NCBI GenBank assembly: GCA_963803145.1
Contig: CAWDLW010000038.1
Coordinates: 1-48,041 of the forward strand
Direction: 5' to 3'
Source of the DNA: Methanotrichaceae archaeon
GTDB taxonomy: Archaea > Halobacteriota > Methanosarcinia > Methanotrichales > Methanotrichaceae
DNA length: 48,041 bases
The notes below the pieces were generated by a model. That model saw nothing but the letters and a program-made list of their open reading frames with translations, ran no database searches and had not been told where the DNA came from. The translations under genes were made by a program, and so were the position numbers. Shown here piece by piece: positions 5,289 to 41,500 of this stretch (its first letter is position 1; each line of letters starts with the position of its first letter).

Positions 5289-5541
5289 ATGGTGAGGTGA
5301 CCTGCTGCAGTTGTGGGCTGCGGCTGGAATCGGCGCAGATGTCCAGACAACCGAGGAGACAGATAATCAATCAACCGCCTGTTAAATCCTCATGTGAACC
5401 GTCCCGGAGGGCGTTAGCCCGTCGCGGCGACTGAGCGACGCCCCGTAAACAGCTAGCGCGGGAGCGAAGCGACTCGCGGGCACTCCGAAATTAGAGCGCT
5501 GTAAAGTTGACTAAGACTTGACTTATGGACAGATAGTAAAG
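5289..5541. repeat. About 250-bp GC-rich direct repeat, copy A (hairpin repeat family)
   Basis: Closely similar to 6355-6608; contains AGCCCGTCGCGGCGACTGAGCGACGC and GAGCGAAGCGACTC. Confidence 0.9.
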
Positions 5542-5674
5542 TTTGATCCTGGGTTCCGCGACATTTTTTGAATAGCCTGTTAAAATGCCACCGAACTTTC
5601 CCAGCGACATTTAAATCCTTTCGATGTGCATAGGGTCTTGATGTTTGCGGAGCCACTCGCAATTGAGGTGAAGA

Positions 5675-6139
5675 GTGAAGATTAAAATAACAATCATTGG
5701 ACCCAACGTTCATGATGTGGGCTACAGGCCATTTCTGATTGCGTTAGCTGGTGATTGTGGTATTAGCAAATTTGGGGTAAGAAACATCAGAAAGGATGGT
5801 GAGCAATCGGTTGTGGCAATAGTAGATGCTGAAGAGGCCCAAATTGAGGGTCTCATGGACTTGGTGGGATCAAACAAGCCAGAAGGTGCAGAGGTCACAG
5901 GTATTGATAGTGAATTATATGCCGGGGAAGTGCCCTCGATAATGGAAACTTCAATTGTAAACATGAACGCACAGTTAGCTAAGGGTATCAAACGTCTGGA
6001 TGAGCTACCAGGGATAAAAGCAAACACTGGTGCTATCCTAGAAGAGATTAAGGGTGTGAAAGAGGAGCTGCAGCCTGGACTAACTCAGCAGATGCGAAGG
6101 GATATCGCTGCTATAAAAGAGCGTTTGGGGATGCCATAG
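5675..6139 (+). CDS. Acylphosphatase-like protein with C-terminal coiled coil
   Basis: KITIIGPNVHDVGYRPFL resembles the acylphosphatase GxVQGVGFR motif; heptad-like tail; GAGGTG RBS. Confidence 0.75.
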   Translation: MKIKITIIGPNVHDVGYRPFLIALAGDCGISKFGVRNIRKDGEQSVVAIVDAEEAQIEGLMDLVGSNKPEGAEVTGIDSELYAGEVPSIMETSIVNMNAQLAKGIKRLDELPGIKANTGAILEEIKGVKEELQPGLTQQMRRDIAAIKERLGMP

Positions 6140-6141
6140 AC

Positions 6142-6332
6142 TGGACTGAACCCCTGATAGTTGACAGGTAGTTAAGCAATAATATTTAAAGCGGCCTACA
6201 TTTCAAACTGATCAGGCGATTTATATTCCAGAGCTGAATGCAGTCTCTTCTTGCAGTAGACCTTCTCGATAAAATGCCGTATGTTTCTGAGGGCATCTTC
6301 AAATGTTTCGTACACATATAGGTAAACCTGAG
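6142..6332 (-). pseudogene. IS3-family remnant: transposase C-terminus plus right end
   Basis: VYLYVYETFEDALRNIRHFIEKVYCKKRLHSALEYKSPDQFE matches the IS3 integrase C-terminus; terminus TGGACTGAACCCC at 6142. Confidence 0.8.
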
Positions 6333-6354
6333 GTGGTGCCGCTCTCAAGGCACG

Positions 6355-6608
6355 ATGGTGAGGTGAATCAGCAGTATTGTGGGTGGTACGGCTGGAACCG
6401 GCGCAGATGTCCAGACAACCGAGGAGACAGGCAATCAATCGACCGCCTGTTACCTCCTCATGTGAACCGTCCCGGAGGGCGTTAGCCCGTCGCGGCGATT
6501 GAGCGACGCCCCGCAACAGCTCGCGCGGGAGCGAAGCGACTCGCGGGCACTCCGGAATTAGAGCGGCGTAAAGTTGACTAAAGCGCGGCTTATGGACAGA
6601 TGGTAAAG
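6355..6608. repeat. About 250-bp GC-rich direct repeat, copy B
   Basis: Closely similar to 5289-5541. Confidence 0.9.
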
Positions 6609-20147: not shown

Positions 20148-20277
20148 ATGCAGAAAGAAGGGTATGCTCTGGCTCATGCATGCAATGCAATATTTGGATG
20201 ATGCTAGATACTGTTTTCAGGGATCGTCGAGGGCAATGGAGCATGTAATATCGACTATAGAAAAGACACGGGACTAA
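20148..20277 (+). pseudogene. Possible HEPN-domain N-terminal remnant
   Basis: MQKE../MLWLMHAMQYLDDARYCFQG resembles the first helix of HEPN proteins. Confidence 0.3.
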
Positions 20278-20639
20278 AGTTTCTTGCTCCTTTTTGTTTC
20301 TTCATTCAATATCTGCAGAAGGATTGGTTTGTAACTTGGGATTAGCTTAGTAGCCGACTCCCATATAATGAACAAATCAATCCCAAAGTATCCGTGTATG
20401 ATCTTATCCCTTAAGCCAGCCATTTTGCTCCATGGAATCTCAGGATACTTCTGCCTGACTTCCATAGGGACGTTCTTAGTCGCTTCGCCAATGACTTCCA
20501 TTGCCCTGATAACAGCGAAGTGTGCCATGTCATCTTCTATAAAATCCTCTTGCGTCATTCCGGCAGTGAAATCTTCTATCTTTTCCACCATTGCCAGGAT
20601 ATCCTGCAAATAGTCGAGATAGTCTCTGTTTGCTTTCAA
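20274..20639 (-). CDS. HepT-like (DUF86) HEPN toxin
   Basis: YLQDIL, IGEATK, PEIPWSKMAGLRDKIIHGYFGID (RxxxxH). Confidence 0.92.
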   Translation of the reverse strand: MKANRDYLDYLQDILAMVEKIEDFTAGMTQEDFIEDDMAHFAVIRAMEVIGEATKNVPMEVRQKYPEIPWSKMAGLRDKIIHGYFGIDLFIIWESATKLIPSYKPILLQILNEETKRSKKL

Positions 20640-20983
20640 ACCAGAACTACCTCGTTAAGGATTCGGTTTCCTCTGTTGCCTTTCAACGCGGGCCTCGTTA
20701 CCAAGTCTACTTTCTGGCCTAGAAGCGCAGTCAGATCGTCCTCTAGATCCATGAATTTGAATATGTCTGGCGTCTCAGAGAATTCGACCAGAAGATCTAC
20801 ATCGCTAGTGCTTCTTGCCTCTCCCCGCACGTAAGAGCCGAAAATGCCTAATGACTTAATCTTATGGCGCTCTGTTAGATCGGGCATGTGTTCTCTCAGG
20901 GTCCGCCTGATATCTTCCAGGGTGGGAATGTTTTCTGAAGGCGAATTGGCTTTTGAGGGCCAGCTCTTATTTTTAGGGATCAT
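20636..20983 (-). CDS. MntA-like minimal nucleotidyltransferase antitoxin
   Basis: GIFGSYVRGE..SDVDLLVEF, KVDLV; 4-bp overlap with the hepT-like gene. Confidence 0.92.
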   Translation of the reverse strand: MIPKNKSWPSKANSPSENIPTLEDIRRTLREHMPDLTERHKIKSLGIFGSYVRGEARSTSDVDLLVEFSETPDIFKFMDLEDDLTALLGQKVDLVTRPALKGNRGNRILNEVVLV

Positions 20984-21203: not shown

Positions 21204-22259
21204 CTAGCTCTCCAATGATTGATCAAAAACAAATTAAAAAGTGTTATGTGTGTCTAAGTGCATACGTTGTTAGCAGAGCACGTTCCAGACACACACTCGA
21301 AGTTCTTTTTACAGGATTTGCCGGTTAGTTTCTTTTCTTTGCATACATTTGTAGCTGCTGTGAAATCACATGCAAGTTGATAAGGGTTATACTTGTCATC
21401 GAACTTGCATTCGCTCTGGTAGGAGCATGGATCATTCTTATCTTGCCAGATCCTCTCACCTTTGGCGTTCTCTATCCAGATCTTGTAGATAGCAAAGTCA
21501 TCTCCCTTTGGAATGATCTTCAATGTATTCGTGCCAACACTCAGATCGGATACTGCCAATTTGTACAGGAGTTTGTCCTTTCCTTCATCTGTGGTCTTGC
21601 TATCGAAGTCTTTGAGCTTCCTTGCCGGCCTGTCATTTATCTTGAACTGGGAGTCTTGATTCAAATTTACGCCGCCGCTCACTGTCTTGTCAATCAGGAT
21701 TACTAGCTTGGGCGCATCTCGAACTGCATCCGCCTGCCCTGTTCCGCCTATAACATCAACGTTGAACTCTGCATAATAGACATCGGCAAATGCGTTAGGC
21801 CCATCGCCAACTCTGAACTGCTCATTCGGCGGTCCGAATAGGCCGAGGAAACAGCCTTGAGGCACTATTGTCTCTCTGTTTGAAACGCACTTATGCAATA
21901 CATTTATGTCAGTGCAGTACGATTTTGTGCAAGCAGGTCCTTGGATGTCTGGCTGGTCTTGACTGGTGACACCTGTCTGCGGTCCCTGCATATCCGGATG
22001 ATCTTGGCTGGTCACTGAGCTTGCTGTTGGCACTGCCCCTGCAGGATCCACCATCTTGCCGAACCAGACAACAGCGTAATTGCCGTCGATGCCGACACCC
22101 ATAGCCTTCCATGCAGATCCTGCCCAAGTATTGCGTTCGAGAATAACATCGCTATGATCGGTGCTGCCCTTCCATGTATTAAGAGCACAATCCGGCGTTG
22201 CCTCTGGAGTTGCGTAAACTGATATCTCATCGCCATCACTATTATAAATACCGTCAGTT

Positions 22260-23386
22260 GAGGATTCCTATTTACCTGTGTTTAAAAATCAGTTCTTAGA
22301 AGTTGACCCAAGTTTCGTCTTGAGGGTTCCAATATCCTTGAATTACCCACTTATTCGATCATTCATCGACAGCATCCGCTAGTCTAAATAATTTTGGCGT
22401 TTTTAAGAGTGCAGAGCTGATAGAGGTTAAAAGCAAAAGCTGTAACCATCATTTTAACACCAACTCTTTTGACAGTTGTAACCAACACTCTCCCAGCTCC
22501 AAAGACTCTTTTTATGACAGCATGAGGTCTTTCGCCAGGCGATCTTAAAACGCTAATCAATCGATTTCGCTCTTTATCGAGTTCTCCAAGTTGGTATTCC
22601 GTGGTTCTGCGCTTCATGGTAAAATCAATACCTTTTGCCTTCACGCCGAAATAACCTCTATCTCTAAGCACAATCTCTCCCGCTTCAGATAGGTCGACCT
22701 GACTATCGTGCGTTGATGCCGTAGTTGTCTCTATTTCACGTATAAGGCAGTAATCGATATCGGTTTTTTGGTGCAACTTATAGCCGAAATAGGATTCTTT
22801 TCCTTTTTTGGCCCAGGTACCATCTCTGCTGCGGCGAGTTTTAGCATTCTCGCCGCGCAGTTTCTTAGACGATCCTGGATCTGCTTCGATGAATGTGGCA
22901 TCTTGAACCGTTCCACGTTTAACTTGTAAGCCCATTTTGTCCAGCTGCCTTTGAAGTCTGCCCAGACTATCTCTTTTTTCCCGGTCTCAGCCATGCGTTC
23001 TTTGAAAAGCCATATAGTCCTGGAATCGGGGAATGGATCAGGAAAGCCGAGAAAAGACATAAACGAGATGCGATCTGCCATTTGTCTTTCAACTTCCAGA
23101 TCACTCAAACCATACCACTGTTGAAGAACTAGGATTTTGAACATCAGAATAACGTCATAGTTGGGCCTTCCGCCCCTTTCGCTCTTATTGTCATACATCT
23201 CTTCAAGAATGAGACGAATTGGTTCCCAGTCTATTAAATCTGATATCTGTGAAAGTCGAGACTTCCCTTGTTTAGTGCCAAGCCCTCTAAGTATCCATGT
23301 GGTAAAAGAATCCATGATATGGAATAGTATTATTAGTATATAAACTTTCTCATATTGTTGCCTTGGGTAGGTTAATAGGAATCCTC
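22260..23386 (-). mobile_element. IS5-family insertion sequence
   Basis: 18-bp TIRs GAGGATTCCTATTTACCT / AGGTTAATAGGAATCCTC (1 mismatch); 4-bp TSD AGTT at 22256-22259 and 23387-23390. Confidence 0.93.
22384..23315 (-). pseudogene. IS5 transposase, frameshifted near 22958
   Basis: GGRP, LQQWYGLSD, PDSRTIWLF, DATFI, FGYKLH, DRGY; adding one base in GCAGACTT would restore WAELQRQLDKMG. Confidence 0.85.
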
Positions 23387-23973
23387 AGTTATCTCACTGG
23401 GCTTGTTATGCATCTGTGATTGGCTAACAGATCCTGTATAGCATACCGGCGTCCAATTGCCTTTATTTGACCAGCTATGTGTGTTGCAGTCGCCCGTTCC
23501 ATAGTTCAGCGTATCGGGATGATGAGCATTGAGATCAATTATGTGAGTCCTAGCAACATTAGTTAGCGAGTTTGTGATGGGAATGGCTGGAAGTCCATTG
23601 TCAATTCGATACTGGTTAACAAGATCTGCGAGCTTCTTCTCATCGCTATTCAAAGGGTTCTGCTGGTTCTGCGCCTGAACAGCAAATATGGATATTGTCA
23701 GCGATAAAAAAACGATTGCCAACAACTTTTTTTTGATTTTTGCGTCTTTAATATATCAATCCCTCCGATATTGCAGCTTTCTTTAAACAGCTAGTGACCG
23801 AAAATGGTTTCTTTACTATTAATAGTTGCTTAATGCAATCTCATCCTGAGAGATAAAATGGAGAGAGATTTTCGAACAACTTATTGATGCATGATCCCAG
23901 CGCGCTCCGACGCCCGCGCGAGCCTAAAAAGATTACAATTCAAGAGCATACATTTCCGGGCCACTCTCGCTTT

Positions 23974-24097
23974 GCGTTTGGTGCCGACTAATATAATTCA
24001 ACCGCCTTCACTTTCTTCTGGGGCTAACACTAACAGCGTTCTTAGCGCGCTCAATCGCTGTGCGGGCTACCCCTAACCCCTCGCTGGGGGAAGGCTT
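23974..24097. repeat. Hairpin repeat family copy C (direct repeat with 31167-31289)
   Basis: CACTTTCTTCTGGGGCTAAC...TAGCGCGCTCAATCGCTGTGCGGGCTACCCCTAACCCCTCGCTGGGGGAAGGCTT. Confidence 0.85.
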
Positions 24098-24258
24098 TGG
24101 AAAACGCATACTGCAATACTGAAGAGCACAAAATGAAGTAGCACCCTAGTGGCTTTCAGGCAGCATTCCCACTAGGCCATCGAAGAGAAAAAGAGTAAAT
24201 AGCTTCCGCTACTTACTGCAAGATTGCATCCCGATGTGCGAGATCCGGATGCACGAGC

Positions 24259-24453
24259 TTAAGCGAGAGCGGTTTCAGCGGCCCTTAGAGGGTTTCCGCT
24301 TTCGCTTTTTGCTATATCGATTTTCGGCATGACTATTTTCTCAACAGTTATTCTCACCTTATCACCCGGGTGAATATCTAGAACTTCACGGAGTGCTCTG
24401 GAAAGCTGCACTCTTCCGCGAGCGTCTACTTCTCCCACAATTGTTTCTCCCAT
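24259..24453 (-). CDS. AbrB/MazE/SpoVT-family DNA-binding protein
   Basis: VDARGRVQLSRALREVLDIHPGDKVRI. Confidence 0.85.
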   Translation of the reverse strand: MGETIVGEVDARGRVQLSRALREVLDIHPGDKVRITVEKIVMPKIDIAKSESGNPLRAAETALA

Positions 24454-24908: not shown

Positions 24909-26039
24909 CTACTTTCGCTTCGTTATACTAGCTGAAGGACGCATAGGTAGCCCATCGGCGATCCATCCCACCAGGAAAGAAGCAGCTGTATGCGATGCAT
25001 AACGCTTCCAGTTGTCTCTCTCTTCAGTCCCCCTTGTTTCATCTCCATTATCAGAACGCGGTAGATCAGAAATACCTCTGATCATCATGAAACCAACGGA
25101 ATTACCCAAACAATGTGCTTGCTCTATGGCACTACTTATACCTGCGCCTTCCATCTCCACTGCTTTACAACTTGGCAAAACACCCAGTATTTTAGCGAAG
25201 TATTCGTTTGTGGGGTCTTCAATTATCTTATCACCTGAGGCAATCTCGCCTCTAATCACAGTAGGCTCGCATTTAGTAGGCGATTCAACCTTAATGCGCT
25301 TATGCCAATCATTCCAACGAGAGTAAGCGATAGCCCCATTCAGCAATCCAATATCTGTTCTATAAGTCCAGGTTACTCGCGGCTTAAAATTTTTATCTAG
25401 TTTCCCATATTCATATCCGTAAATAACATCAGCGATAATGATATCGCCTTTTTTTATCATCGAATGTTTTTTTTGTGGATCATTTATGCCGCCTGCAATT
25501 CCTGAAAAGAATATATATCGAGGCTTCCAAAGGCGAATAGCTTGATCGGTCGCTAAAGCGCTTTGATTAGTTCCAGCCCTGCCTATCATACCTACTGATA
25601 CATTATATGTGTCATTGAATTTCCGACAATAGACATAACCGAACTTCCATGCATAAAGGTCGGGAATTAAACCTATATTAGGCGAACGAAGGCCTGATAG
25701 CTGAGTGCAAATTTCATCATACTCTTCTTGAAGAACAGTAAGTATAACGACATCTGCCTTGGAATCTTCAAGAGGCGACGGAGGTTGTTGTGGAGGTATC
25801 AATATCTTCATCAATTGCCTCGCCACTATATCATATTGTTCAAGGTCCGCTAATGTACTCTGGATATCTAATACATATGCCTCAGGATTTTTTCTTACAT
25901 TAATAGAGACCCTATCTGGCAATCGTTTTATTACACTATCAGCCAATTGCCGACATGCATCATATTTAGATTTAACTAAAGGACTACTATGATGCCAATA
26001 ATCTATTAACATCCTTGTGATTTCTTCATGCCTGTTCAT
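24909..26039 (-). CDS. PNP/MTA-SAH nucleosidase-domain effector with an unrecognised ~90-aa N-terminal domain
   Basis: ILTVLQEEY, SGIAGG, GDIIIAD, GEIASGDKI, AVEMEGAG, IRGISD; Pro-rich linker; ATG 8 nt after the upstream stop. Confidence 0.88.
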   Translation of the reverse strand: MNRHEEITRMLIDYWHHSSPLVKSKYDACRQLADSVIKRLPDRVSINVRKNPEAYVLDIQSTLADLEQYDIVARQLMKILIPPQQPPSPLEDSKADVVILTVLQEEYDEICTQLSGLRSPNIGLIPDLYAWKFGYVYCRKFNDTYNVSVGMIGRAGTNQSALATDQAIRLWKPRYIFFSGIAGGINDPQKKHSMIKKGDIIIADVIYGYEYGKLDKNFKPRVTWTYRTDIGLLNGAIAYSRWNDWHKRIKVESPTKCEPTVIRGEIASGDKIIEDPTNEYFAKILGVLPSCKAVEMEGAGISSAIEQAHCLGNSVGFMMIRGISDLPRSDNGDETRGTEERDNWKRYASHTAASFLVGWIADGLPMRPSASITKRK

Positions 26040-26047
26040 TTGACACA

Positions 26048-29011
26048 CTACCTAAAGAGGCTATCCCGCAAATGCAACACATTTTGCCTTAACGATAGAC
26101 TCCTCATTCCTTCAGACTTTTGTGGTGGACTAGAGCGTGTTTTAATCCACCAAATCGCAAAGGCACAAAGGAATAATACCAGCAATATGCCCTTAGGGAT
26201 TGGTCCGACTATTAATAGAATTAGTCCCCCTAAAACTAATGTACCAATTAATGTGCTGTGCTCAATCAACCAGATAGCGCGCTCTTGAAGTTTGGCTATT
26301 GTTTTAATCTCGTTATCTGCTGCCCTCCGCCATTTTTCCAATACAAAAGTCATTGCCTGTTTATTTGATTTATTTTGTGCCAAAACCTCAGGCATTAACC
26401 CTTGTATAATGACACTAAAGCGTTCTGCACTTAGCGTAGCAATCCAAATTGCAATTTTCTCCACGAATCTACTTTCCCTAACATGTTGGAGGGATGTTGG
26501 AATAGCTGTAATCTCAGGTGTAGCTTCTTCTATAGGCTGGTTCCGTCGTTCCCGAATCTCTATTATTTGCTGCGCTTCTTTCTGTTCCAGAGCATTGGCA
26601 AAAACTACAGATGCTCGGGTTGCAATTTGCTGAGCTGCGGGGTTTTTGGGATCTTTAATCCAGCGAAGCATTGCTCTTTCAACAGCAGTTAATGGACGTT
26701 CCGAATTAAGCCATATTGGATATGTTTTCTCGTCTACAACTATGAAATCGTCCCCACCCTTCAAGTTTCCTCGCTGCTCAAGGTACACGTTTTTGAGAAT
26801 TTTGACTATCTTATCACTCTCGTTCTCATCCACCTCAGTTACAAGCCTTTGTAGCATCGGTTCGACTCTTTCGAAATTATTATAAGCCTGAAGACTAATA
26901 GCTATTACCACATAATTGCGGACAAAGGGATGCGTCTCTTCTGCGAGAATACTCTGCATACGCTTAAACCCCTCATCAGTTGTAAGTATGCCAGTCATAT
27001 CGTCGTATTTAATATATCCATAGGTCATAGCTATTGTAGCCAACAACTTTTCTCGCAGATTGGGTTCGATTGGATTGGTCCGTGCTGGTCGCAAGATTCT
27101 ACATTCTTGATGCCATTCATCTAGAACAGCAAGAACTTCCTCAGCATTATAGCGATAAGCTAATGCCAGGCTATTGCTAATTGCAGGAATGAGATCGATG
27201 TATCGTGCCATATCATGCAAAATCCCTCGCAATTGTTTCGTATGCAAAGGAACTACATTAGGCAATGTATGAGAACGGAAACGATTTCGTACTAATGTAC
27301 TTTGGTCTTCTGCTAAATCTGCCAGTAGTTTGCAAATGTTATCATTGAGCATATTGCGAGGATCTTCACGCGCTGCATAGCTAACTGTAAGGGCGACCGT
27401 AGCCCGAATGTAATCTCTCGAGTTCTCGTGTCGCTCATCTTTCTTCAGCTCGTTTCTTTGCCTAAGAATTTCTTCGATTAGATAAGACCAACGCGTCTGT
27501 AATTGCCAGTCTTGCAATGTCTCGAAAAGCTCTGTGTCGCGTCCGTAATTACGCCATTGTGCCATCGCACGTGCTGCTACAGCCTGCACGCCCAGATCAT
27601 TATCGGCAGCTAATTTGAGTAATGTACGTTGAACTGCATCCACAGAGATCACACCAATATCGCATAGGGCTTCGCTAGTAACCATACGCAATTGGTGGCG
27701 CCTTTCAGTAGTGCCATATAACTCAGGATCGAGTGATCTATCTGCAACGGAATCAACCGCAAGCTGTGCTATTACTGGCAATGCCGCCAATATATATCGG
27801 CGATGACTGTTCCATGCTATTTCAAATAGCGTACGACGCAATTCTGGGATACGGCTCTCAATCCTAGTTCCATAGCCTTCAATCGGCACTAGATCAAAAA
27901 TATTTCTAAGCTTATCCAAATCGCAGTAGTCCAATGCGCAAAGAGATGGATCACGCCGCTGCCAAACTCTCTCGATCACTCTTTCCATGGCAGCAAAAAA
28001 CTGGTCATCGAAAAGACCATCAAAGAAGCTTAAGCCCAATGCCAATAGTTGTTCACGAGGACTTAAGGCAGGATACCATCGCTCAAGCGTACGCCTTTTA
28101 TCACGAGCGGAAACAATTAGATCCTTAATCACTAATGATTGTAGGGGCCTCTTTTCGGCGCAAAGTAATTGTACGAAATCAGAGATATTATCAGGTGTTT
28201 TTAGCAGTTTTGCTACCTCTTGAATTTTCATATTATCCACTAATGGTTGATCTGGCTCCAATTGCTCACTTAGGAACCCTTTAGGCAAAGACTCTTCAGC
28301 ACCATTCAATTCTTGTATTAGCACGTCCGCCAAGTCATTAATATCATAAAGATATTCAGTGAGCAATTCATACCAAAAATACTGATCATCTTTAGGCATT
28401 TTCCAACTAGGACTAGGTACATCAGTACTTGCTATAACAAAATGTTGATTCTTATTTGCAGCTTTGTTGATAGATGACAGATCATATCTGACATCTTGTG
28501 GCGAAATCTTAGGGAGGATGAAAATAGTTGGAGTAGTTATTCTCAGGAGTTTTGCCTCAATACTCTGAGGATCGGAGGAACTTCGATACCATTCCAAAAT
28601 AGGCATTTCTAATATAGTAGGCATTTTGCCATCGCTGGAAGATGATAGGAGTTCGGAATTACTCCCTAAGAGGCTATCTTCATCGATGAATGCATCGTTG
28701 ATGGAAAGGTCATTTGACAGCTCAGACGAGCCTTCAGATGGATTCGAGAGATCCCATGATGCTTGTTTCAAAATCTCACTGAGAGACCATGCAAGATGCC
28801 GAGCTAACGCCGACTTATCAATTTCATTGCTTCCACCAAGTACAAGCAACCTATTTCGGCGTATCGTATCAATTAATGAGTGGGTATCTTTTGGGCTTTT
28901 AAATCTAGGAGGTTTGAACGGCTCAAGATTGGGCTTGTAGAACTCTGTTTCTTCCTGTGGATAGGTTTCAATCAGATCCGACGTACTCTCCGTCTGCTGC
29001 TCAGATGCCAT
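26048..29011 (-). CDS. 987-aa protein: degenerate P-loop (STAND-like) domain, HEAT/ARM-like helical repeats, two C-terminal TM helices
   Basis: RLLVLGGSNEIDKSALARHLA (Walker A with G>D); LKLAADNDLGVQAVAARAM and LADLAEDQSTLVRNRF repeats; hydrophobic hairpin near the C-terminus. Confidence 0.7.
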   Translation of the reverse strand: MASEQQTESTSDLIETYPQEETEFYKPNLEPFKPPRFKSPKDTHSLIDTIRRNRLLVLGGSNEIDKSALARHLAWSLSEILKQASWDLSNPSEGSSELSNDLSINDAFIDEDSLLGSNSELLSSSSDGKMPTILEMPILEWYRSSSDPQSIEAKLLRITTPTIFILPKISPQDVRYDLSSINKAANKNQHFVIASTDVPSPSWKMPKDDQYFWYELLTEYLYDINDLADVLIQELNGAEESLPKGFLSEQLEPDQPLVDNMKIQEVAKLLKTPDNISDFVQLLCAEKRPLQSLVIKDLIVSARDKRRTLERWYPALSPREQLLALGLSFFDGLFDDQFFAAMERVIERVWQRRDPSLCALDYCDLDKLRNIFDLVPIEGYGTRIESRIPELRRTLFEIAWNSHRRYILAALPVIAQLAVDSVADRSLDPELYGTTERRHQLRMVTSEALCDIGVISVDAVQRTLLKLAADNDLGVQAVAARAMAQWRNYGRDTELFETLQDWQLQTRWSYLIEEILRQRNELKKDERHENSRDYIRATVALTVSYAAREDPRNMLNDNICKLLADLAEDQSTLVRNRFRSHTLPNVVPLHTKQLRGILHDMARYIDLIPAISNSLALAYRYNAEEVLAVLDEWHQECRILRPARTNPIEPNLREKLLATIAMTYGYIKYDDMTGILTTDEGFKRMQSILAEETHPFVRNYVVIAISLQAYNNFERVEPMLQRLVTEVDENESDKIVKILKNVYLEQRGNLKGGDDFIVVDEKTYPIWLNSERPLTAVERAMLRWIKDPKNPAAQQIATRASVVFANALEQKEAQQIIEIRERRNQPIEEATPEITAIPTSLQHVRESRFVEKIAIWIATLSAERFSVIIQGLMPEVLAQNKSNKQAMTFVLEKWRRAADNEIKTIAKLQERAIWLIEHSTLIGTLVLGGLILLIVGPIPKGILLVLFLCAFAIWWIKTRSSPPQKSEGMRSLSLRQNVLHLRDSLFR

Positions 29012-29842: not shown

Positions 29843-29966
29843 GATTTAAAACTCCACATTTGTAGACTGCTTGATCTATATCATCTTCCTCTAGTGTGCA
29901 ATATTGCGCTCAGCTTCAAAAGGGGTTTGGATAATATTAATAGCTGATAGGAAGAATTACATTCCT

Positions 29967-30173
29967 ATGAGACAAGTGGTCATCTATCCAGGCGAAGACG
30001 GCTACTGGGTGGCGGAAGTTCCCAGCTTGCCCGGCTGCATCAGCCAAGGGAAAACCAAGGAAGAAGCAATTACCAATATTAGGGAGGCCATTAAAGCCTA
30101 CATAGATGCACTGAAGGAGGATTGCATCCCGGTTCCTGAAGATCACTTGGAAGCCATGTTGACGGTAGTATGA
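29967..30173 (+). CDS. HicB-family antitoxin (no adjacent hicA)
   Basis: MRQVVIYPGEDGYWVAEVPSLPGCISQGKTKEEAITNIREAI. Confidence 0.9.
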   Translation: MRQVVIYPGEDGYWVAEVPSLPGCISQGKTKEEAITNIREAIKAYIDALKEDCIPVPEDHLEAMLTVV

Positions 30174-30348: not shown

Positions 30349-30762
30349 TTAAATCTGGATGGATACAACCCGGATATCTTTTGCTTTGAATATCGGCTTA
30401 CTTGATCGTTCAGTTGTTATCAGCTCTTCAGCTCCTGCAGATATTGCAGCTGCCACATGAAGCGAATCCATGGCATTCAATCCAATTTCCGAAGCTTTTT
30501 GATTAGCCATTTCCACGATTGTACCGAGATTATTAGCCCATATAGATACAGAATCAAAGAATGCACTATAAAATTCAGCTTCATGCGTCCTTCTGCTAAA
30601 AATCGCTTTAGGAAGCACTTCAAGCCTGACAAAAGGGCTTGAGATAAATTCTCGGTTAGGATCGTCTAGGATTGATAGGGCCCTTCTGGATTGTTCACTG
30701 CCCCCACGAGCTGCAGCTATGAGAACTCCGGCATCTATAAAAGTCAGCATCTTATGCTTCAA
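30349..30762 (-). CDS. PIN-domain (VapC-like) toxin
   Basis: TFIDAGVLI, SPFVRLEVL, MDSLHVAAA, LITTE. Confidence 0.9.
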   Translation of the reverse strand: MKHKMLTFIDAGVLIAAARGGSEQSRRALSILDDPNREFISSPFVRLEVLPKAIFSRRTHEAEFYSAFFDSVSIWANNLGTIVEMANQKASEIGLNAMDSLHVAAAISAGAEELITTERSSKPIFKAKDIRVVSIQI

Positions 30763-30974: not shown

Positions 30975-31166
30975 GCTTATGGAACTGCTTTGGTTAAAAA
31001 TATTGTCTAGGATGATATGAATAGGAAAATGATGAGAATGAAATAGGGTGATGCTAAATTGTTTTGATGCCTAAATATTATCCGCTGGTGGCAAAGCAGA
31101 GGATTTAACTCGGCCTCCGAGAAACCTTGGGGCTGATCAAGGAGTCGCAAATCGCCCTGTTAATTC

Positions 31167-31289
31167 GCGTTTGCGGCTGACTAACATAGTTCGAAGGCCC
31201 ACACTTTCTTCTGGGGCTAACAATAACTACACTCTAGCGCGCTCAGTCGCCGCGCGGGCTGCCCCTAGTCCCTCGCTGGGGGAAGGCTT
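31167..31289. repeat. Hairpin repeat family copy D
   Basis: Direct repeat of 23974-24097. Confidence 0.85.
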
Positions 31290-31409
31290 CTGGATACGTA
31301 GACAAGAAACCAAGATTTTGAAACCAAGCTAAATTGTTTTCTTATAAACTCTATCCCTTATGATAAATAATGGTTTATATAGGGTATCACTTATTGAAGA
31401 ATCACTAGT

Positions 31410-33206
31410 ATGAGTAGAAAAAGGATAAATGAAAAAAGCTATAATAACCGACATCATACAAAAAACAAAAACAGACTTCAGGACATCGGAAGCTGTGAAT
31501 GGCTAATGAAAGCCGACCTATTTCGACTTCGTGATTATAAATTTCCGTGGGAGAATAAAACTGAAACTCTTAACGCAAATCGAAACAATATTTTTGGGGG
31601 TTTCAGTATTAAAATGTTAGATTATAAACCGCCTCATGATATAGTAACAAGAGATGATTTGGAAAAATTAAATAGAAAAATTGAATTTCGAATAAAAAAT
31701 TATAGCCTTGATTCATTGCTGTTAATGATACATGACACTTACTTGTTGGATAGATCATTTCCTTTTGTAGCTGGCATGATGACGAAATATGCTATACTTA
31801 ATTGTGAAGTTGATATCGGATATACTATTTACGATGAAAAAGATCCCTCTATGTATAGAGAGGAATTCCTTGAACTAAAAAAATTGATTACAGGTTATTC
31901 TGCATATGATCCTGATCTAGAGCAAGAATCGGATTTAAGGAATAGTCGTGATAAAAAAGTCTCATTCATTTTTAGAAAAATTGGCAGCCAATCGAGATGG
32001 AGTATTCCTATTCATAACATGTTAGGTAGAACTATTTATCTATTTGGTGAACTTTCAAAGAGCGATAAAGCACCACTCTTTATAAAAGATCTTGTCAGTT
32101 ATTATTTTGAAGAAAAATTTAACATACCACTTCTTGATTTTATTAAAATAGGATTTGTTTTATTTGCTGGATCAATTAATCCAGGAGGATTGACGAGAAA
32201 TTATCTCGAGATTGCTCGTAACAGGAAAATGCCAATAGCATCGGACGCGATAATAAATAGATGTCTTGAACAGGTAGCATGTTATCCAGAACAATTTAGG
32301 GATTTATGCAGGGAAAGAGATGCAGGTGAGGAATTCCTTCGAGCATATAAATTCAATCCTCTTTTTCTATTTCCGATAATCAGGCCATGGAAGAATAGTC
32401 ATGTGGGCGAATTAAAGAATGATCGATTTATAGCGCCTATCCCAGAACTTATTATATATCGTTTTACAACAGGTTTATACTATCAACTTTTTAACGACTT
32501 TAAATTAAAATTTACCCAGGCATTTGGAAAGCTTTTTGAATTATATGTGGGAAAAATATTGGAATGGTATAAGCTGCCTGGAATTATTTTATCAGAGAGT
32601 GACATATCTTTGTTATTACCTAATTATTATGGAAAGAAACCTGATTGGATTATTTTATGCGCGGAAGGTGTTGTATTTATCGAATGTAAGGCCACAAAAT
32701 ATTCTCAAGATATTTATGAACATGGCATTAATGCTAGAATCGATAATATGGGATTTATCAGACATATTCATAATGCTATTGATCAGTTGAACGAGCTTGA
32801 ATCCCAAGTACCTTTATTAAAGGAAAAGTGTGGTTTTTCTTCATCTAATAGTGGTATTATAAAATTGATAGTCTCATTTGAGCCTCTTCCCGGATTGAAA
32901 GAAGGTCCTATCAGAGAGTGGGTTGAAGAAAAGAAAAAGAGGGAAGGCCTCAAAATGGATTGGATTGTAGTCTGGGTTGGAGAACTCGAGGAAGCCCAGC
33001 CGTACATAACAAAAGGTGCAAACTTCTGGAGTTTCTTGAAAGATTATTGGGAGAAGGATTTCAACTCAATTCTAATGGAAATGAAATCTAAAACCGGATC
33101 TAGTTATAAAGATGGCATACTCTATCAATATGAAAAAACGATGTTCAAAGAATTATTGAAGAATGCACCATCTTCAATTCGTAATCTGGCATTTTTGAAT
33201 TCCTAG
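31410..33206 (+). CDS. AT-rich hypothetical protein with C-terminal PD-(D/E)xK nuclease-like domain
   Basis: FGKLFELYV...KKPDWIILCAEGVVFIECK...AIDQL; true start may be MLDYKPP. Confidence 0.7.
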   Translation: MSRKRINEKSYNNRHHTKNKNRLQDIGSCEWLMKADLFRLRDYKFPWENKTETLNANRNNIFGGFSIKMLDYKPPHDIVTRDDLEKLNRKIEFRIKNYSLDSLLLMIHDTYLLDRSFPFVAGMMTKYAILNCEVDIGYTIYDEKDPSMYREEFLELKKLITGYSAYDPDLEQESDLRNSRDKKVSFIFRKIGSQSRWSIPIHNMLGRTIYLFGELSKSDKAPLFIKDLVSYYFEEKFNIPLLDFIKIGFVLFAGSINPGGLTRNYLEIARNRKMPIASDAIINRCLEQVACYPEQFRDLCRERDAGEEFLRAYKFNPLFLFPIIRPWKNSHVGELKNDRFIAPIPELIIYRFTTGLYYQLFNDFKLKFTQAFGKLFELYVGKILEWYKLPGIILSESDISLLLPNYYGKKPDWIILCAEGVVFIECKATKYSQDIYEHGINARIDNMGFIRHIHNAIDQLNELESQVPLLKEKCGFSSSNSGIIKLIVSFEPLPGLKEGPIREWVEEKKKREGLKMDWIVVWVGELEEAQPYITKGANFWSFLKDYWEKDFNSILMEMKSKTGSSYKDGILYQYEKTMFKELLKNAPSSIRNLAFLNS

Positions 33207-36969: not shown

Positions 36970-38556
36970 ATGAGGCCGATATACCTGATTGCCATCCTCT
37001 CACTCCTGATAGGAGCTGCGTATGGGCAGCTTTCACCGGATAAAGAGAGGTTCGATGTAAAGCTTCACCCGGGTGAAGTCATTGAGAAAACACTTACGCT
37101 GAAGAACGTTGGAGATACACCTATACTCAAGATTACCAATACACCAATCAGCGGTGATGCGAAGGATTTTGTATTCCTGAATATACCTGATGGCAAGGTT
37201 CTCGATCCCCAGGATAGTGAGAAGATCAGTATATTTTTTGCAGTTCCTCCTGAGGCCAAACCTGGACAGTATACCAGCTCCATCTATCTTCTCGATAGTG
37301 CACCGCCATCGATGCCCGTAGCGATAGAATTCTATGTGTATGTGACTCCACCCGAAAGCTACGATATAGACTTATCCATAAATGATGCCAGAGCAGCCTC
37401 TACTTTCGCTAAGGCTGGTGATACTGCAGACTTCGATCTTCTAGTCTCCAACTTGGGCAGGTTCAGGGATGTAGTATCAGTGGATATTCCTGCTCTTCCT
37501 GATGGCTGGAGCGCAAGCCTTCTAGACGGAGATGATGAGGTTCCTATTCCATTTGAAATTCCTCTAAACCCAGGCATAAGTCATCCATTGAAACTTAAAA
37601 TAGAGTCGGCCAACCCGGGAGAGAAAGGAAAAGTTACTGTTGAGGCTAAATCGCTGGGGAACAGCTCCAAGAACTCTACGGTCGAGGCATCCGCAGAGTT
37701 CGGCATAGCTGTAAGAGGTTACAACGTTAAGACTGATCTGCCTGAGAAGATGGTGCCCAATAGGACGTATGAAGGTGCCTTCAGCATAGCCATGCAGGTC
37801 AAAGAGAAGGTTACAGTGGGTGTCCTCACGCCCTCTGAGCTGCTGGTGATACCCGTAATTCAGGTTGAACCAGTTACCCCAGATAACCCAGGAGTAGCTA
37901 ACTTCACCATGCTCGCCCTAAAGCCCGGTGAGTATCCTGTAGTCTTCAAGCTTATTGATTCCAAGGGTGTCCATATGCCTGATGAGATTGCAGCCGTAAA
38001 TGTCGTCGAGCCAAACGGCACAGCCATATTGACTGGAGAGGATTTCCTCTACAAGACTATAGCATCTCTATGCCCCCCGGAGAATTCAAGTCTGCCAGTC
38101 ATAACAGCTCCATTAGGAAAGCTGGACGAGAACTCTAAGGAGAGCCTTTTCGCCTATTCAAAGGTCGTGATATTTGGCAACGAGTCAGTAGTCACGAATG
38201 ATGCCGAGGCGGAACTCAAAGGCACTGAACTAAAGAGAATACAGGGAAATAGCCTCTGCGACATGTCCTGGCAGCTAATCTCAGAGATATGGAAAAATGG
38301 AACATCTGAAGTGATACTATCAAGCCCTGAGGATACTCAGCTATTTAGAGCATATCGTGAGGCTAAGATGCTTAATGTGCCTTTGGCAATTTGCGAGACT
38401 AATATGACTATGACAAACACGACCAGATCAGTTATCGCGGATCTAACTAAGCGCAATACCAAGCTCACAAAGGTGCTGGTGGTAGGGAGTATTAGTGAAG
38501 ATAGCAGAAAGACACTGGCAAATATGGGAATCTCCGTTGAAGAGGTGAAACAGTGA
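36970..38556 (+). CDS. Secreted multi-Ig (NEW3-like) surface protein
   Basis: Signal peptide; LTLKNVGD, NLG..DV..LPDGWSA Ig-like units; C-terminal alpha/beta repeats. Confidence 0.8.
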   Translation: MRPIYLIAILSLLIGAAYGQLSPDKERFDVKLHPGEVIEKTLTLKNVGDTPILKITNTPISGDAKDFVFLNIPDGKVLDPQDSEKISIFFAVPPEAKPGQYTSSIYLLDSAPPSMPVAIEFYVYVTPPESYDIDLSINDARAASTFAKAGDTADFDLLVSNLGRFRDVVSVDIPALPDGWSASLLDGDDEVPIPFEIPLNPGISHPLKLKIESANPGEKGKVTVEAKSLGNSSKNSTVEASAEFGIAVRGYNVKTDLPEKMVPNRTYEGAFSIAMQVKEKVTVGVLTPSELLVIPVIQVEPVTPDNPGVANFTMLALKPGEYPVVFKLIDSKGVHMPDEIAAVNVVEPNGTAILTGEDFLYKTIASLCPPENSSLPVITAPLGKLDENSKESLFAYSKVVIFGNESVVTNDAEAELKGTELKRIQGNSLCDMSWQLISEIWKNGTSEVILSSPEDTQLFRAYREAKMLNVPLAICETNMTMTNTTRSVIADLTKRNTKLTKVLVVGSISEDSRKTLANMGISVEEVKQ

Positions 38557-41500
38557 GACTGCTCTTGGTTCTCTTAGCGATTATATTTCTTTCCAGCGCT
38601 ACAAATGCTCAGCTTGAGCGGGGCGTGAAGGGCAATGTAGAGGATGTAATCTTAGTGGGTGCAGATGACTGGCAAGCTTCAGTTGCGGCAACACCTCTGG
38701 CAATATGGTCCGAAGATAACCATACAGTTGCAAGAACTCTAATGATTCTCCCAAAGGACGTCCGATCTGGCGATCGCATGGGCTGGGTTGAGCAAAGCGA
38801 TCTGGACACCTACGGAGCTGCCTCGATTTTGCACGACTTTAAATCTGCCAATGTCACTGCCATCACCATTCACGGAAGCGGGGATGCTGTAAAGAGCCTT
38901 GTCGATGCGGCCCATAAGGAAGGGCTGAAGGCATATGTGACAGCATCGCTCGAGCTTCCCAAAAAATCCGATAGTAGCATAAAGCAATTAGGCACAGTAA
39001 ATCTGGGCAGCACAGAGACTGCATCGGTCGCCGAAAAGATGTTCCTGGGAGAGATTGGTCTCGATACACCGATCCTTGACAAATCCCAGATCGATCCCTC
39101 CTGGATTCAGGTTGCGAATACAGGCACTGATGGCAATGGCAACTACTTCTGTCCAGTGAACCCTGATGCTAGAGAGAGCCTGTATAATCAGATAGAAACG
39201 TTGGTAGAAGACTATAAGGTCGATGGAGTTGTGCTCTATAATATCGGCTTCCAGAACGATAATTACTGCTTCTGCGATTACTGTAAAGAGCAGTTCTATA
39301 AAGATACTGGAATAGACTTGACAAAGGTCTCAGCCAATAGCTACAACATGGAGAGATGGAGGCAGTGGAAGCAGGACCAGGTTATGGAGATTGTGAGCGA
39401 AGCCAGAAATATAACCACAGATCTTGGGCCTGTGAAGCTCGGCTTTGCCTTGGGCGATCCATTTGATCGAAGCCTTGGATATAACTATGCAGATATCTCA
39501 AAAGCTGCGGACTTTACACTGATCTCACCTGTATCCGCCTCAGATGTAAAGCTGGCATCGGGCATGACTGACAAGCCGATCTACATAAGGCTCAGCGATA
39601 GCTATGTACAGTACGTCCTCTCTGCCCAGAACGTAGAAGGTACAATCAATTACATCGAAGACCTCAATCGGGCAGGTGCAAGTGGATTTGCCTTCGAGCA
39701 CAATGTGGTCTACACACCCCTGTGGTCTGAGCTTGAACCGCCATCGAACTCAGCAAGATGGTTATTACAGCAGCTCGGCGGAAAAACTCTCGGCATAGGT
39801 AATATCTCGTGGAGATGCGATTCGACGATCAAGGCAAACAACAGCGCTGATCTCGCAGGAAAATTGAGTGTGCGTTGGATAAACTCATCAGGAGCTGTGA
39901 TCGTTGGCGACAATTATACAGCTGGTCTAAGTGCAGCATCGCTGGCGTCATATCTGGATTGGCCTGTGCTTTTCACCGGCAATACATTGCCAGCTGAGAC
40001 AGCTTCGGCACTGAAGCGTCTGAAGACAAATAAAGTTGTAATATTCGGCCCAATATCAGAGCAAAGTAGAAAGAATCTCAGCGACTTAAACCTCACCTTG
40101 ATAGAAGGGAATGATGGACTCATTCTCAAAGAGATGGAGGCGAGGGGAGATAAGCCAAATATGATTGTTCTAACAAACTCCCGCGATCTTTCCTTATTGC
40201 CGCCAGTGCCAACAGAGGATATCAAGCGCGATCTGGTAGGAGATCTACTTGTTCATATCGATATGAGTACGAACCAGGTGCCATCTGAGGAGCTTGGCGA
40301 AACAGTGCGGCTGAACATAACCCTTACCAACACCAATTCAACAGATATTGAGAATATCCGCTTCATGGATATTTTCCCCAGCGGCAAGATGCTCAGAGAG
40401 CCAAAGCCCAGCCAGGGAACGGTCAATGTTACAGATCCTTACACAGGCAACGATATCAATCCAGATAGCGCCTTTGAAAACGGCTCGCTGCTCAGGTGGC
40501 ACCTAGATAAGCTTGGTCCAGGCGAGTCCACCACATTGACGATAGAGGCCGAGATCCTCTACCCAATGGATTCAGGTTGGAAGCAGCGACTAGATAGCGG
40601 TGCAACAGTATCCTATGACGGCCTGGTGCTCAACAAAACTATGGTGAGGAAAGATGATTGGCCGATAACTAATATAACCTATCCTGCCAAAATGTTCTCA
40701 GGAGTGGCACATATATCCTGGAGCATCGATAGAGCTTCCAGCTATACCGCCATCAATATCTACAGCCCTGATAGCAGAAGCGGGCTCTTAAAGGTAAAAA
40801 ATACTTCGCAGGAAAATAGATATACTGCAAAGATACCGCTCTTAACTCCAGGCAAATGGATTTTCAATATCGAGGCAGGCGATGGCTATACTCATAGAAC
40901 TGAGAATTATACAATAAACGTTCAATCAAATGTTGATCCGTTGAACATCACCGCCTTTAGCCATACAAAAGTTCCTAGGCTCTCGCTTGTTGCCGCTCAG
41001 GTTGCAGCAGCTCATAAGGCCCTATTAGTGGATGTTGCGACGGCACCACAGGAGATTGATCCTTTAAATATTGAGGATTCCCTCAAAGAGAAAGTAGATG
41101 ATCTGCAGCTAACGCCCACGTACCTAACTGTCGTGGGCGACCCAGGATCCCTGCCCTTTATCGCTACCGGCCTCAAGCAGGATGAAGTCCCTCCCATGAT
41201 ATTCGATATCTACAGGGATTATCAGATTCAGCAGGATGATGACAACTATACGAGTACAGCAGTCGGCAGAATCATGGGTCTGAGTGTATACGATGCGTCT
41301 CAACTGGTAGCACGAACGCTTGCATATGACAAGCTCAGCGGAGCCTGGAAGAACAATGCACTGGTCATATCCTCTCCGCCGCTCTCATTCCCGCAAGCGC
41401 CAGTTGCGATTAGCATTGGGGATTACCTTAAGAACGCGGGAATGAATGTCAAAGACCTGCTCCACGAGGAGGCAACATATCAGCAGGCTGTTTCGCAAAT

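Follow-up and report, generated by a model that had tools for sequence, protein, structure and literature searches.

A candidate two-gene NLR-like conflict module, pairing a membrane-anchored STAND-type protein with a PNP-fold nucleosidase, in a Methanotrichaceae archaeon

A minus-strand gene pair in an archaeal contig

The DNA analysed here, referred to as the window, is a stretch of 48,041 nucleotides (nt) that makes up one whole contig (CAWDLW010000038.1) of a 4.13-Mb archaeal genome of the Methanotrichaceae type; an archaeal RNase P RNA lies within it. Two neighbouring genes on its minus strand are the subject of this study. Gene 1 encodes a large protein that resembles the signal transduction ATPases with numerous domains (STAND) and the nucleotide-binding leucine-rich repeat receptors (NLRs), and gene 2 encodes a nucleosidase of the purine nucleoside phosphorylase (PNP) fold, preceded by a small helical domain that we call N-dom. 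A first-pass annotation, made from the nucleotide sequence alone, had picked out the pair as a candidate membrane-anchored antiviral system, with gene 1 as the sensor and gene 2 as the effector. The pair is arranged as follows.

26048..29011, minus strand: gene 1, open reading frame (ORF) of 987 amino acids (aa) with an ATG start
26040..26047, minus strand: spacer of 8 nt between the gene 1 stop and the gene 2 ATG
24909..26039, minus strand: gene 2, 376 aa from ATG; N-dom, proline-rich linker and PNP-fold nucleosidase

The close spacing given in the first-pass annotation holds when gene 2 is read from its ATG. An alternative GTG start would extend the gene to 24909-26048, and the ATG start (24909-26039) is the one that fits the N-termini of the homologs. 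Both ORFs, of 987 and 376 aa, were intact and free of internal stops, and each gene was present as a single copy in its own genome. The pair had been described as visibly AT-richer than its surroundings; the direction of this difference was right, although its size is modest (GC content of 0.420 for the pair versus 0.456 for the window).

Gene 1 encodes a STAND-type protein with a non-canonical P-loop

The following parts were distinguished in the gene 1 product.

27602..28957, minus strand: STAND-type nucleotide-binding oligomerisation module, residues 19-470 (AlphaFold2 model and VIA-align)
28811..28837, minus strand: non-canonical Walker A, GGSNEIDKS, residues 59-67 (alignment of 17 homologs)
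28604..28750, minus strand: serine-rich/acidic insertion in the nucleotide-binding domain (NBD), about residues 88-136 (predicted to be disordered)
26297..27601, minus strand: helical HEAT-like region, residues 471-905 (presumed sensor)
26132..26269, minus strand: membrane hairpin of two hydrophobic helices, residues 915-960 (Kyte-Doolittle hydropathy)

None of the models in Pfam, NCBIfam or PADLOC reached significance with gene 1 (0 PADLOC hits at E<=1), Pfam NACHT and NB-ARC were not matched, and the gene 1 profile returned 0 hits among the sequences of the Protein Data Bank (PDB). The N-terminal part was modelled with AlphaFold2 over residues 1-470 from 43 aligned sequences, giving a mean predicted local distance difference test score (pLDDT) of 86.4 and a predicted template modelling score of 0.81. 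The best match found by VIA-align was the Pyrococcus protein 6mfv_A, in which a STAND module is joined to tetratricopeptide repeats (TPR) (Z 15.7, root-mean-square deviation 3.7, 288 aligned), followed by MalT (8bob_D, Z 14.9), NRC2 (13.9), Apaf-1 (12.6) and the NB-ARC of NRC1 (12.1). Lower matches included SAMD9 (Z 11.6), Avs5 (about Z 10) and generic AAA+ proteins (about Z 9), and Foldseek searches with the same model also returned STAND/AAA+ proteins. In this model the N-terminal module has the STAND/NLR fold, residues 19-470 being made up of the NBD, the helical domain, the winged helix and the first helices of the solenoid.

The Walker A segment had been called broken, and the deviation turned out to be family-wide. 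The canonical pattern GxxxxGK[ST] was not matched, as a glycine before the lysine was found in 0 of 17 homologs and aspartate, glutamate or asparagine stood there in all 17. The lysine itself (K66) was invariant (17/17), and serine or threonine followed it in 9 of the 17. On the evidence of sequence only, no aspartate or glutamate occupied the two positions after the Walker B strand in 13 of the 17 homologs, the window protein included. Because the P-loop glycine and, in most relatives, the Walker B acids have been lost, the module may still bind a nucleotide and would be unlikely to hydrolyse it. The degenerate NTPase on an inactive-looking STAND scaffold that the first-pass annotation had proposed is thus matched by the modelled fold and by the P-loop. 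The insertion noted there within the NBD was recovered as well: 48 residues contain 13 serines, seven leucines, five glutamates and five aspartates, the pLDDT falls below 50 over residues 102-131, and most homologs have a gap at this place, so that the insertion is largely specific to the window protein.

Behind this module, the long HEAT-like solenoid of the first-pass annotation fared less well. The region is putatively helical, and its HEAT-like character found weak support (Pfam HEAT_2 at E 0.13; precomputed PF13646 matches in 10 of 54 homologs); feature matches in the ESM Atlas to HEAT clusters scored 0.81-0.84, below 0.9, and serve as a lead only. The two C-terminal transmembrane helices were located within residues 915-960, where 19-residue Kyte-Doolittle windows exceeded 1.6, and were followed by a tail of about 27 aa; the alignment placed hydrophobic segments at the equivalent position in the homologs. 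The family comprised 54 homologs, counting gene 1 itself, from Methanotrichaceae, many cyanobacteria, Herpetosiphonaceae, Aminicenantes, Longimicrobium and Bacteroidota, and its closest named relative came from a metagenome-assembled genome of the Methanotrichaceae. In cyanobacterial homologs, further domains were found beyond the membrane segment, namely SH3b in 10 of the 54 and IMS in 4 of the 54. Since these domains come after the membrane segment, they point to an extracytoplasmic C-terminus in the forms that bear them.

Gene 2 carries a nucleosidase domain of the immune type

Three parts were assigned to the gene 2 product.

25776..26039, minus strand: N-dom, five-helix adaptor-like domain, residues 1-88 (AlphaFold2)
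25752..25775, minus strand: proline-rich linker, residues 89-96
24945..25751, minus strand: PNP_UDP_1 nucleosidase domain, residues 97-365 (Pfam, alignment, tree)

Residues 97-353 matched PF01048 (PNP_UDP_1) at E 2.4e-13, and the motifs AVEMEG and IRGISD, which had been reported as intact, were conserved in the alignment. E106, E297 and D325 aligned with E12, E174 and D197 of E. coli Mtn, which we take to have catalytic roles there; the predicted catalytic residues of gene 2 are accordingly placed in the alignment where an active enzyme would have them. The best NCBIfam match was the equivalog for methylthioadenosine/S-adenosylhomocysteine (MTA/SAH) nucleosidase (E 1.6e-14), with 54 bits against a cut-off of 169, and a PNP_UDP_1 gene distinct from gene 2 exists elsewhere in the genome (E 3.3e-43). 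In PADLOC only models of PNP effectors were matched, namely PDC-M60C (E 2.7e-13) and the 'PN-superfamily' effector of the cyclic oligonucleotide-based antiphage signalling systems (CBASS; E 5.6e-11). A PNP profile run against the PDB returned only MTA/SAH or futalosine-type nucleosidases, and no entry for Cap17 or DtcC.

A total of 305 homologs of gene 2 were found. Among the best 120 of these, the closest relatives (50-62% identity over the PNP part) were fused to other domains, including TIR, SIR2_2, NACHT, HEAT_2, FGE-sulfatase, several effector-associated domains (EADs) and PF20689. Plasmid-borne relatives were fused to HNH, SAVED, AAA or TPR modules, and on the Nostoc plasmid pNPM2 the gene for a PNP-SAVED protein adjoins an annotated CBASS cyclase. 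A maximum-likelihood tree of 33 rows, chosen from the homologs of gene 2 itself with four outgroup rows added, placed gene 2 in a 29-row clade (SH-aLRT 96) with the CBASS-linked PNP-SAVED protein of Nostoc and with NACHT, TIR, SIR2, EAD and FGE fusions. Outside this clade fell the genome's own PNP as well as Mtn, Udp and DeoD of E. coli. The PNP domain of gene 2 would therefore be counted, by its placement in the tree, among the immune-type PNP domains and apart from the housekeeping enzymes, and the refutation that the first-pass annotation had envisaged, a clustering with housekeeping MtnN, did not come about. In the account of Rousset et al. (10.1101/2023.01.24.525353), a distinct immune clade of PNP domains cleaves ATP and dATP and is found in CBASS, Avs/NLR-like, prokaryotic Argonaute (pAgo) and Detocs systems.

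N-dom is shared by exchangeable effectors

The N-terminal domain of about 90 aa, unrecognised in the first-pass annotation, was modelled as five helices (residues 3-16, 23-39, 42-50, 52-69 and 71-80) with a pLDDT of 90.1 and had no Pfam match at E<=1. Against solved structures Foldseek gave no match at E<=1e-3, and the best VIA-align score (Z 5.7) fell to unrelated helical proteins. No Death-like or other adaptor fold stood among these structure matches, which does not in itself establish that the fold is new.

A profile built from six sequences was searched against 1.84 billion representative proteins and found 53 proteins at E<=1e-3, 12 of them at <=1e-10, with the domain almost always at residues 1-88. 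The Pfam families identified in the 54 N-dom proteins (these 53 and gene 2) were CHAT (32), EAD7 (5), TIR_2 (3), PNP (3), EAD1 (2), Trypsin_2 (1) and ThsB_TIR (1); the 54 include P0181, an 855-aa protein matched in seven stretches, which is probably a false positive arising from a translated tandem repeat. The adaptor fused to swapped effectors that the first-pass annotation had suggested looking for is thus what the profile retrieved, and N-dom may be regarded as an adaptor-like domain common to exchangeable effectors (CHAT, TIR, EAD7, trypsin and PNP).

The idea of a homotypic adaptor, present on both partners, was rejected. The local alignment score of gene 1 with N-dom (35) equalled the background, and the N-dom hidden Markov model (HMM) found no match in gene 1. 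Complex prediction for residues 1-880 of gene 1 with residues 1-95 of gene 2 gave a score of 0.00 and a mark of 0.32, and was given no weight either way.

Gene 1 homologs stand next to varying effectors

The neighbourhoods of gene 1 homologs were compared in 15 genome and 28 metagenome loci, which reduced to 30 non-redundant groups, a number that the window brings to 31; individual loci are given L numbers. The N-dom HMM matched only ORFs directly downstream of gene 1 homologs, at L004 (two), L019, L020, L022, L023, L024 and L027; the genes of L023 and L027 and the second one of L004 were absent from its training set. Counted by group, N-dom lay directly downstream of a gene 1 homolog in 6 of the 31, the window included. 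The effector parts of these downstream ORFs belonged, by Pfam, to EAD7 (L019), TIR_2 (L022) and CHAT (L024 and L004). In L004, two N-dom genes stand in tandem (4446-5408 and 5507-6478) downstream of a single sensor, and these are the only two copies of N-dom in the whole 7.6-Mb genome concerned (G493); in the window's whole genome N-dom occurs once, in gene 2.

In the other loci, the partner lies upstream on the same strand. Most cyanobacterial loci have small helical proteins of about 150 aa in this position. Elsewhere, the upstream partner was a PNP protein (L002, L003 and L021), a SEFIR/TIR protein (TIR_2; L008), a TIR_2 protein (L012), a CHAT protein (L028, confirmed by Pfam, and L032) or a protein with a weak alpha/beta-hydrolase match (L026). 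In the sensor tree, the cyanobacterial loci with upstream effectors formed one group, outside which fell the N-dom loci, the window and L001. The last of these is the nearest relative of the window (58% identity), with a different effector on the other side of the sensor, namely a 155-aa protein with a C-terminal hydrophobic helix, which is also found in L018. A label 'Bell-like' for the upstream proteins of about 150 aa was taken from the published description of such proteins (hydrophobic N-terminal helix, acidic residue at position 2-3) and was not confirmed; Pfam returned nothing for them. A search of the window by tblastn with all the neighbour proteins revealed no remnant of an upstream effector.

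Further genes recur around the sensors. In L019 (2-2671 and 6398-9943) and L020, the sensor and its N-dom-EAD7 partner stand between a PglX-like methylase (Eco57I/DUF7008) and a DUF6079/BrxC-like ATPase, a setting that resembles bacteriophage exclusion (BREX) loci. In one cyanobacterial subgroup (L005, 8864-9670; L025; L026; L040), the sensor is closely followed by a conserved gene for a VanY-type D-Ala-D-Ala carboxypeptidase, and the downstream ORF of L013 has an SH3_3 domain. In the Coleofasciculus locus L003 (5447-8484), a PNP ORF truncated at its C-terminus directly adjoins a gene 1 homolog whose start corresponds to residue 258; the arrangement looks like a deletion that took the end of the PNP gene together with the nucleotide-binding oligomerisation domain (NOD) of the sensor.

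Sensors and effectors of most relatives appear to have matching short motifs

Stretches of about 20-25 residues, rich in glycine, asparagine, valine and isoleucine, are found at the N-terminus of gene 1 homologs and at the C-terminus of their upstream effectors, and resemble one another within a locus; N-dom effectors have the equivalent stretch in the linker that follows N-dom. Each neighbour protein was scored against the N-terminal 70 residues of its own sensor and of the 29 others. Fourteen of the 51 neighbour proteins scored better with their own sensor than with all 29 non-cognates, where about 1.7 would be expected by chance, although three of the 14 are doubtful (the downstream VanY of L005, at 35 versus 34; the 286-aa upstream ORF of L037; and L027, owing to the choice of the downstream ORF). 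For seven more of the 51, the own sensor was matched or beaten by one non-cognate only. The own partner was not the best for several of the upstream proteins under the unconfirmed Bell-like label, the number of non-cognates (of 29) scoring at least as high being 27 for L006, 13 for L033, 11 for L030, 7 for L035, 4 for L007 and 3 for L036; the motifs concerned are widely common to cyanobacterial loci. In most relatives, short G/N-rich motifs that match between sensor and effector thus seem to provide the coupling.

This pattern is, in sequence terms, the genomic signature of amyloid-like signalling motifs. As set out by Dyrka et al., such NLR-associated motifs lie in collinear adjacent genes, span about 25 residues, are enriched in Q/N/G/V/I, and accompany Bell, alpha/beta-hydrolase, TIR2 and CHAT effectors; the sensors considered there were defined by NB-ARC or NACHT together with TPR or WD repeats, for which the gene 1 family would not qualify. 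Ibarlosa et al. describe an E. coli antiphage pair, Bab/Agp, in which coupling by amyloid motifs was shown to act.

The window pair departs from this pattern. The N-terminus of gene 1 is short and without the repeated motif of its closest relatives, and in gene 2 the proline-rich linker occupies the spot where many N-dom proteins have the G/N-rich strand motif, which is absent. A strict motif expression was failed by 42 of the 53 N-dom representatives; a looser form was seen by eye in about as many as the 11 that passed. All three N-dom-PNP proteins are without the motif. Because motif-less N-dom proteins recur, including all three that carry PNP, the motif-less design looks like a natural variant. 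As a separate observation, the 155-aa protein of L001 (5371-5838) and L018 opens with three copies of a sensor-type short motif and may be an effector that acts on the membrane and bears the motif at its N-terminus, not its C-terminus.

Distribution

The gene 1 profile was found in 2 of 105 genomes of the order, which consists of a single family. N-dom was present in 1 of 401 genomes in a sample of the archaeal phylum, namely the window's own, and in 1 of 301 genomes sampled from the phylum of L004, namely G493; in the remaining sampled genomes it was not found, which we do not equate with absence. With its patchy distribution and its swapped effectors, the pair would fit an accessory conflict gene that moves horizontally.

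Comparison with known systems

The pairing had not been recognised as a named system in the first-pass annotation, and PADLOC agreed, having no match for gene 1 and matching gene 2 to models of PNP effectors only. One likeness is to the Avs/bNACHT proteins with PNP effectors, which combine a STAND module, a helical-repeat sensor (in gene 1 a presumed one) and an immune-type PNP effector; as reported by Rousset et al. (10.1101/2023.01.24.525353), PNP domains of the Cap17 clade are ATP nucleosidases and also occur on Avs/NLR-like proteins. In contrast to these, the effector is here a separate gene with a new adaptor, the P-loop is non-canonical, a membrane anchor is predicted, and gene 1 matches neither NACHT or NB-ARC in Pfam nor any model in PADLOC.

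A second likeness is to the NLR/effector pairs coupled by amyloid motifs, as in fungal HET-S/NWD2 and bacterial BASS/Bell and Bab/Agp. The adjacent, collinear effectors of gene 1 relatives have a motif of about 20-25 residues that matches the sensor, as judged from sequence alone, and the effectors of the motif-bearing relatives (small helical protein, TIR, CHAT, alpha/beta-hydrolase and PNP) fit what Dyrka et al. and Ibarlosa et al. describe. The window pair differs in having no motif.

The EAD-coupled and inactive STAND (iSTAND) ternary systems outlined by Kaur et al. (2020, 2021; PMC7159879, PMC8195603) are similar in their inactive-looking STAND core, in effector swapping among TIR, caspase-like and PNPase domains, in the use of EAD7 and EAD1 adaptors and, for a subset, in membrane proximity. 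However, N-dom is no Pfam EAD and is not found on the sensor, so that the rule of the same adaptor on both partners does not hold here. The iSTAND systems have MoxR AAA+ and von Willebrand factor A (vWA) partners; a scan of 30 window ORFs and of 20 neighbour proteins from the relatives' loci found neither, and because MoxR and vWA are missing the pair would not be an iSTAND ternary system.

With CBASS Cap17 and Detocs DtcC the pair has in common a PNP-fold effector with conserved catalytic acids; the CBASS 'PN-superfamily' model of PADLOC matches gene 2, which groups with a CBASS-linked PNP-SAVED protein. In contrast, the upstream component is a STAND-like protein in place of a nucleotide or a phosphorelay, and the scan of 30 window ORFs gave no CD-NTase, SLOG/SAVED, histidine kinase or receiver. 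Likewise, component C of PDC-M60 has a PNP domain related to that of gene 2, whereas gene 1 matches no PADLOC model, those of PDC-M60 A and B included. Judged by its genes, the pair belongs to none of the iSTAND ternary systems, CBASS, Detocs or PDC-M60.

No description of the gene 1 sensor family or of N-dom was found in the literature, although supplementary tables of surveys available in part may list them (e.g., 10.64898/2026.01.04.697583, Dyrka et al., Kaur et al.); the first of these, from 2026, distinguishes about 90 STAND families. The sensor family and N-dom would thus be undescribed in the literature found, while the general kind, an NLR-like sensor with an effector, is already known.

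Interpretation and alternatives

We consider it probable that the pair is a two-component NLR-like conflict module that brings about regulated growth arrest or cell death, most likely in antiviral defence. This reading draws on the folds, the family-wide deviation of the P-loop, the catalytic residues, the placement of the PNP domain, the swapping of effectors, the link of N-dom to gene 1 homologs and the sporadic distribution. For the binding and docking, the oligomerisation, the trigger, the substrate and the outcome, we infer the following course. The gene 1 product would act as sensor and hub, anchored in the membrane by its C-terminal hairpin, with the helical region doing the sensing. 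If STAND proteins are taken as the model, a trigger that acts at the membrane or on the helical region would cause a conformational change in gene 1 or the release and oligomerisation of its NOD. N-dom would dock the gene 2 effector onto gene 1, and the clustering would switch on the nucleosidase; relatives of the PNP domain work as oligomers. The enzyme would then cut the base from an adenine nucleotide (ATP or dATP, by analogy with Cap17 and DtcC), and the loss of nucleotide would starve or arrest the cell and any virus inside it.

A number of results weigh against this interpretation. N-dom has no counterpart on the other partner, since its HMM matched none of the gene 1 homologs, and a homotypic pair of adaptors is therefore lacking. 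Nor do the two window genes have a motif in common (local score of 28, where non-cognates averaged 25.5 and 6 of 30 reached 28 or more), so that the coupling route evident in the relatives is missing here. That most relatives appear to be coupled by short motifs had not been foreseen in the first-pass annotation, whose sensor-effector reading was otherwise favoured by the computational tests. The pairing expected in relatives was recovered in part: N-dom does lie directly downstream of the sensor in 6 of 31 groups, as given above, but PNP is the adjacent effector in only 4 of the 31 non-redundant loci, and in the other three (L002, L003 and L021) it lies upstream and without N-dom. The association between N-dom and gene 1 was moreover measured from the gene 1 side only, without the contexts of the 53 N-dom representatives. 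The tree of PNP domains was a quick one with neither a Cap17 nor a DtcC sequence among its rows, and its outgroups were E. coli Mtn (the sole Mtn), Udp, a partial DeoD and the genome's own PNP. Finally, the expected enrichment of defence islands did not materialise, as neither the window nor most of the relatives' loci abound in known defence genes and the only PADLOC match around the pair was the MNT gene (candidate PDC-S09).

The absence of a motif raises the prospect that the pair is a decayed or uncoupled remnant, in which the sensor has lost its motif, the effector has none and the two genes drift without communicating. The short N-terminus of gene 1, its cognate score at the level of the background and a region full of insertion sequence (IS) elements and toxin-antitoxin genes would suit such decay. 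Yet both ORFs are intact, all the conserved and catalytic residues have been kept, and motif-less N-dom proteins recur (42 of 53 fail the strict expression, and so do all three N-dom-PNP proteins), and we regard a remnant as improbable. Somewhat more credence, though still little, is given to the same module with another output, in which the PNP domain would release a base to make a signal, or act on an NAD-derived, AMP or MTA-like substrate, with signalling instead of direct killing. In some N-dom proteins the place of the enzyme is taken by an adaptor alone (EAD7 or EAD1), which argues for multi-step relays in the N-dom family, and the solved structures nearest to gene 2 by sequence are MTA/SAH nucleosidases. 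However, the scan of 30 window ORFs turned up no gene that would receive a signal, and the tested members of the immune PNP clade cleave ATP and dATP in the published account (10.1101/2023.01.24.525353).

The module might also serve a purpose other than antiviral defence, such as surveillance of the membrane or envelope or developmental cell death in a filamentous organism (kin discrimination, filament fragmentation or envelope stress), with the membrane-bound or extracytoplasmic end as the sensing part. The SH3b (10/54) and IMS (4/54) domains that cyanobacterial homologs carry beyond the membrane, the SH3_3 ORF downstream in L013, the VanY peptidase genes after the sensor in L005, L025, L026 and L040, and the occurrence of the gene 1 family in filamentous or aggregating lineages all agree with this; Dyrka et al. 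and Kaur et al. (PMC7159879) describe such systems as typical of multicellular prokaryotes. On the other hand, the repertoire of TIR, CHAT, PNP and EAD effectors is that of antiviral systems, the sensor-effector pairs of L019 and L020 are flanked by PglX-like and BrxC-like genes, and the distribution is sporadic, which leaves this alternative at a similarly low probability to the remnant. It is very unlikely that the two genes are unrelated neighbours, a salvage nucleosidase beside an unconnected membrane scaffold. The best NCBIfam match of gene 2 is indeed an MTA/SAH nucleosidase (E 1.6e-14), but it falls far short of the cut-off (54 bits versus 169). The genome moreover has another PNP_UDP_1 gene (E 3.3e-43), N-dom is linked with gene 1 homologs, and gene 2 and Mtn stand apart in the tree.

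Beyond the conflict module itself, we tentatively put forward a wider proposal that we hold well below even chances. The gene 1 homologs would form an unrecognised family of membrane-spanning NLR-like receptors that, as the extracytoplasmic SH3b or IMS domains of the cyanobacterial forms suggest, report events at or beyond the membrane, with a P-loop that serves as a nucleotide-independent or binding-only switch, and would act through interchangeable death effectors recruited by prion-like motif templating or by N-dom; the archaeal pair would be a horizontally acquired version that uses the adaptor only.

To our knowledge, NLR-like STAND proteins and PNP nucleosidase effectors are common to prokaryotic and eukaryotic immunity, and the prokaryotic NLR-like examples known to us reside in the cytosol, with functional P-loops and, as a rule, with sensor and effector on one polypeptide. 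We also know of almost nothing on immunity of the abortive-infection type in archaea. The gene 1 family would add to the NLR-like proteins a membrane-anchored branch with a degenerate P-loop, and the pair would be among the few such modules seen in an archaeon, here a filament-forming methanogen. N-dom would serve as a handle for finding more effectors of the CHAT, TIR, EAD7, trypsin and PNP types, and the set of loci would allow a natural comparison of motif-based with adaptor-based coupling.

Surroundings of the pair

The features nearest to the pair were the following.

20274-20983: HepT/MNT toxin-antitoxin pair; the MNT protein matches the PADLOC candidate PDC-S09 (E 1.7e-26)
22259-23387: IS5-like element with 19-nt inverted ends (95% complementary)
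23971..24111: dispersed repeat of about 140 nt, left copy (context only)
24259-24453: AbrB/MazE-like ORF (weak match)
29904-30173: HicB-like gene
30349-30762: PIN gene with a small ORF upstream of it
31164..31303: dispersed repeat of about 140 nt, right copy (context only)

Genes of the toxin-antitoxin type thus lie on both sides of the pair, as the first-pass annotation had it, together with mobile elements. The transposase of the IS5-like element is split into two overlapping ORFs (DUF772, 22731-23315; DDE_Tnp_1, 22384-22935). The flanking direct repeats seen earlier are real: the two copies are 81-83% identical and resemble miniature inverted-repeat transposable elements. However, the repeat is dispersed, with 44 matches across the genome, and therefore does not mark borders specific to the gene pair.

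Farther away, a second, IS630-like element (4127-5124, GC content of 0.35) has its helix-turn-helix (4651-5124) and DDE_3 (4127-4594) parts in separate ORFs. Directly after the right repeat copy, a 598-aa ORF (31410-33206) occupies the most AT-rich part of the window (GC content of 0.34-0.37); it had no match in Pfam or PADLOC and may be another accessory gene. A 1461-aa protein (38553-42938) with matches to Peptidase_C25 and DUF11, and weak glycosyl-hydrolase-like and CW_binding_2 matches, is probably a surface protease.

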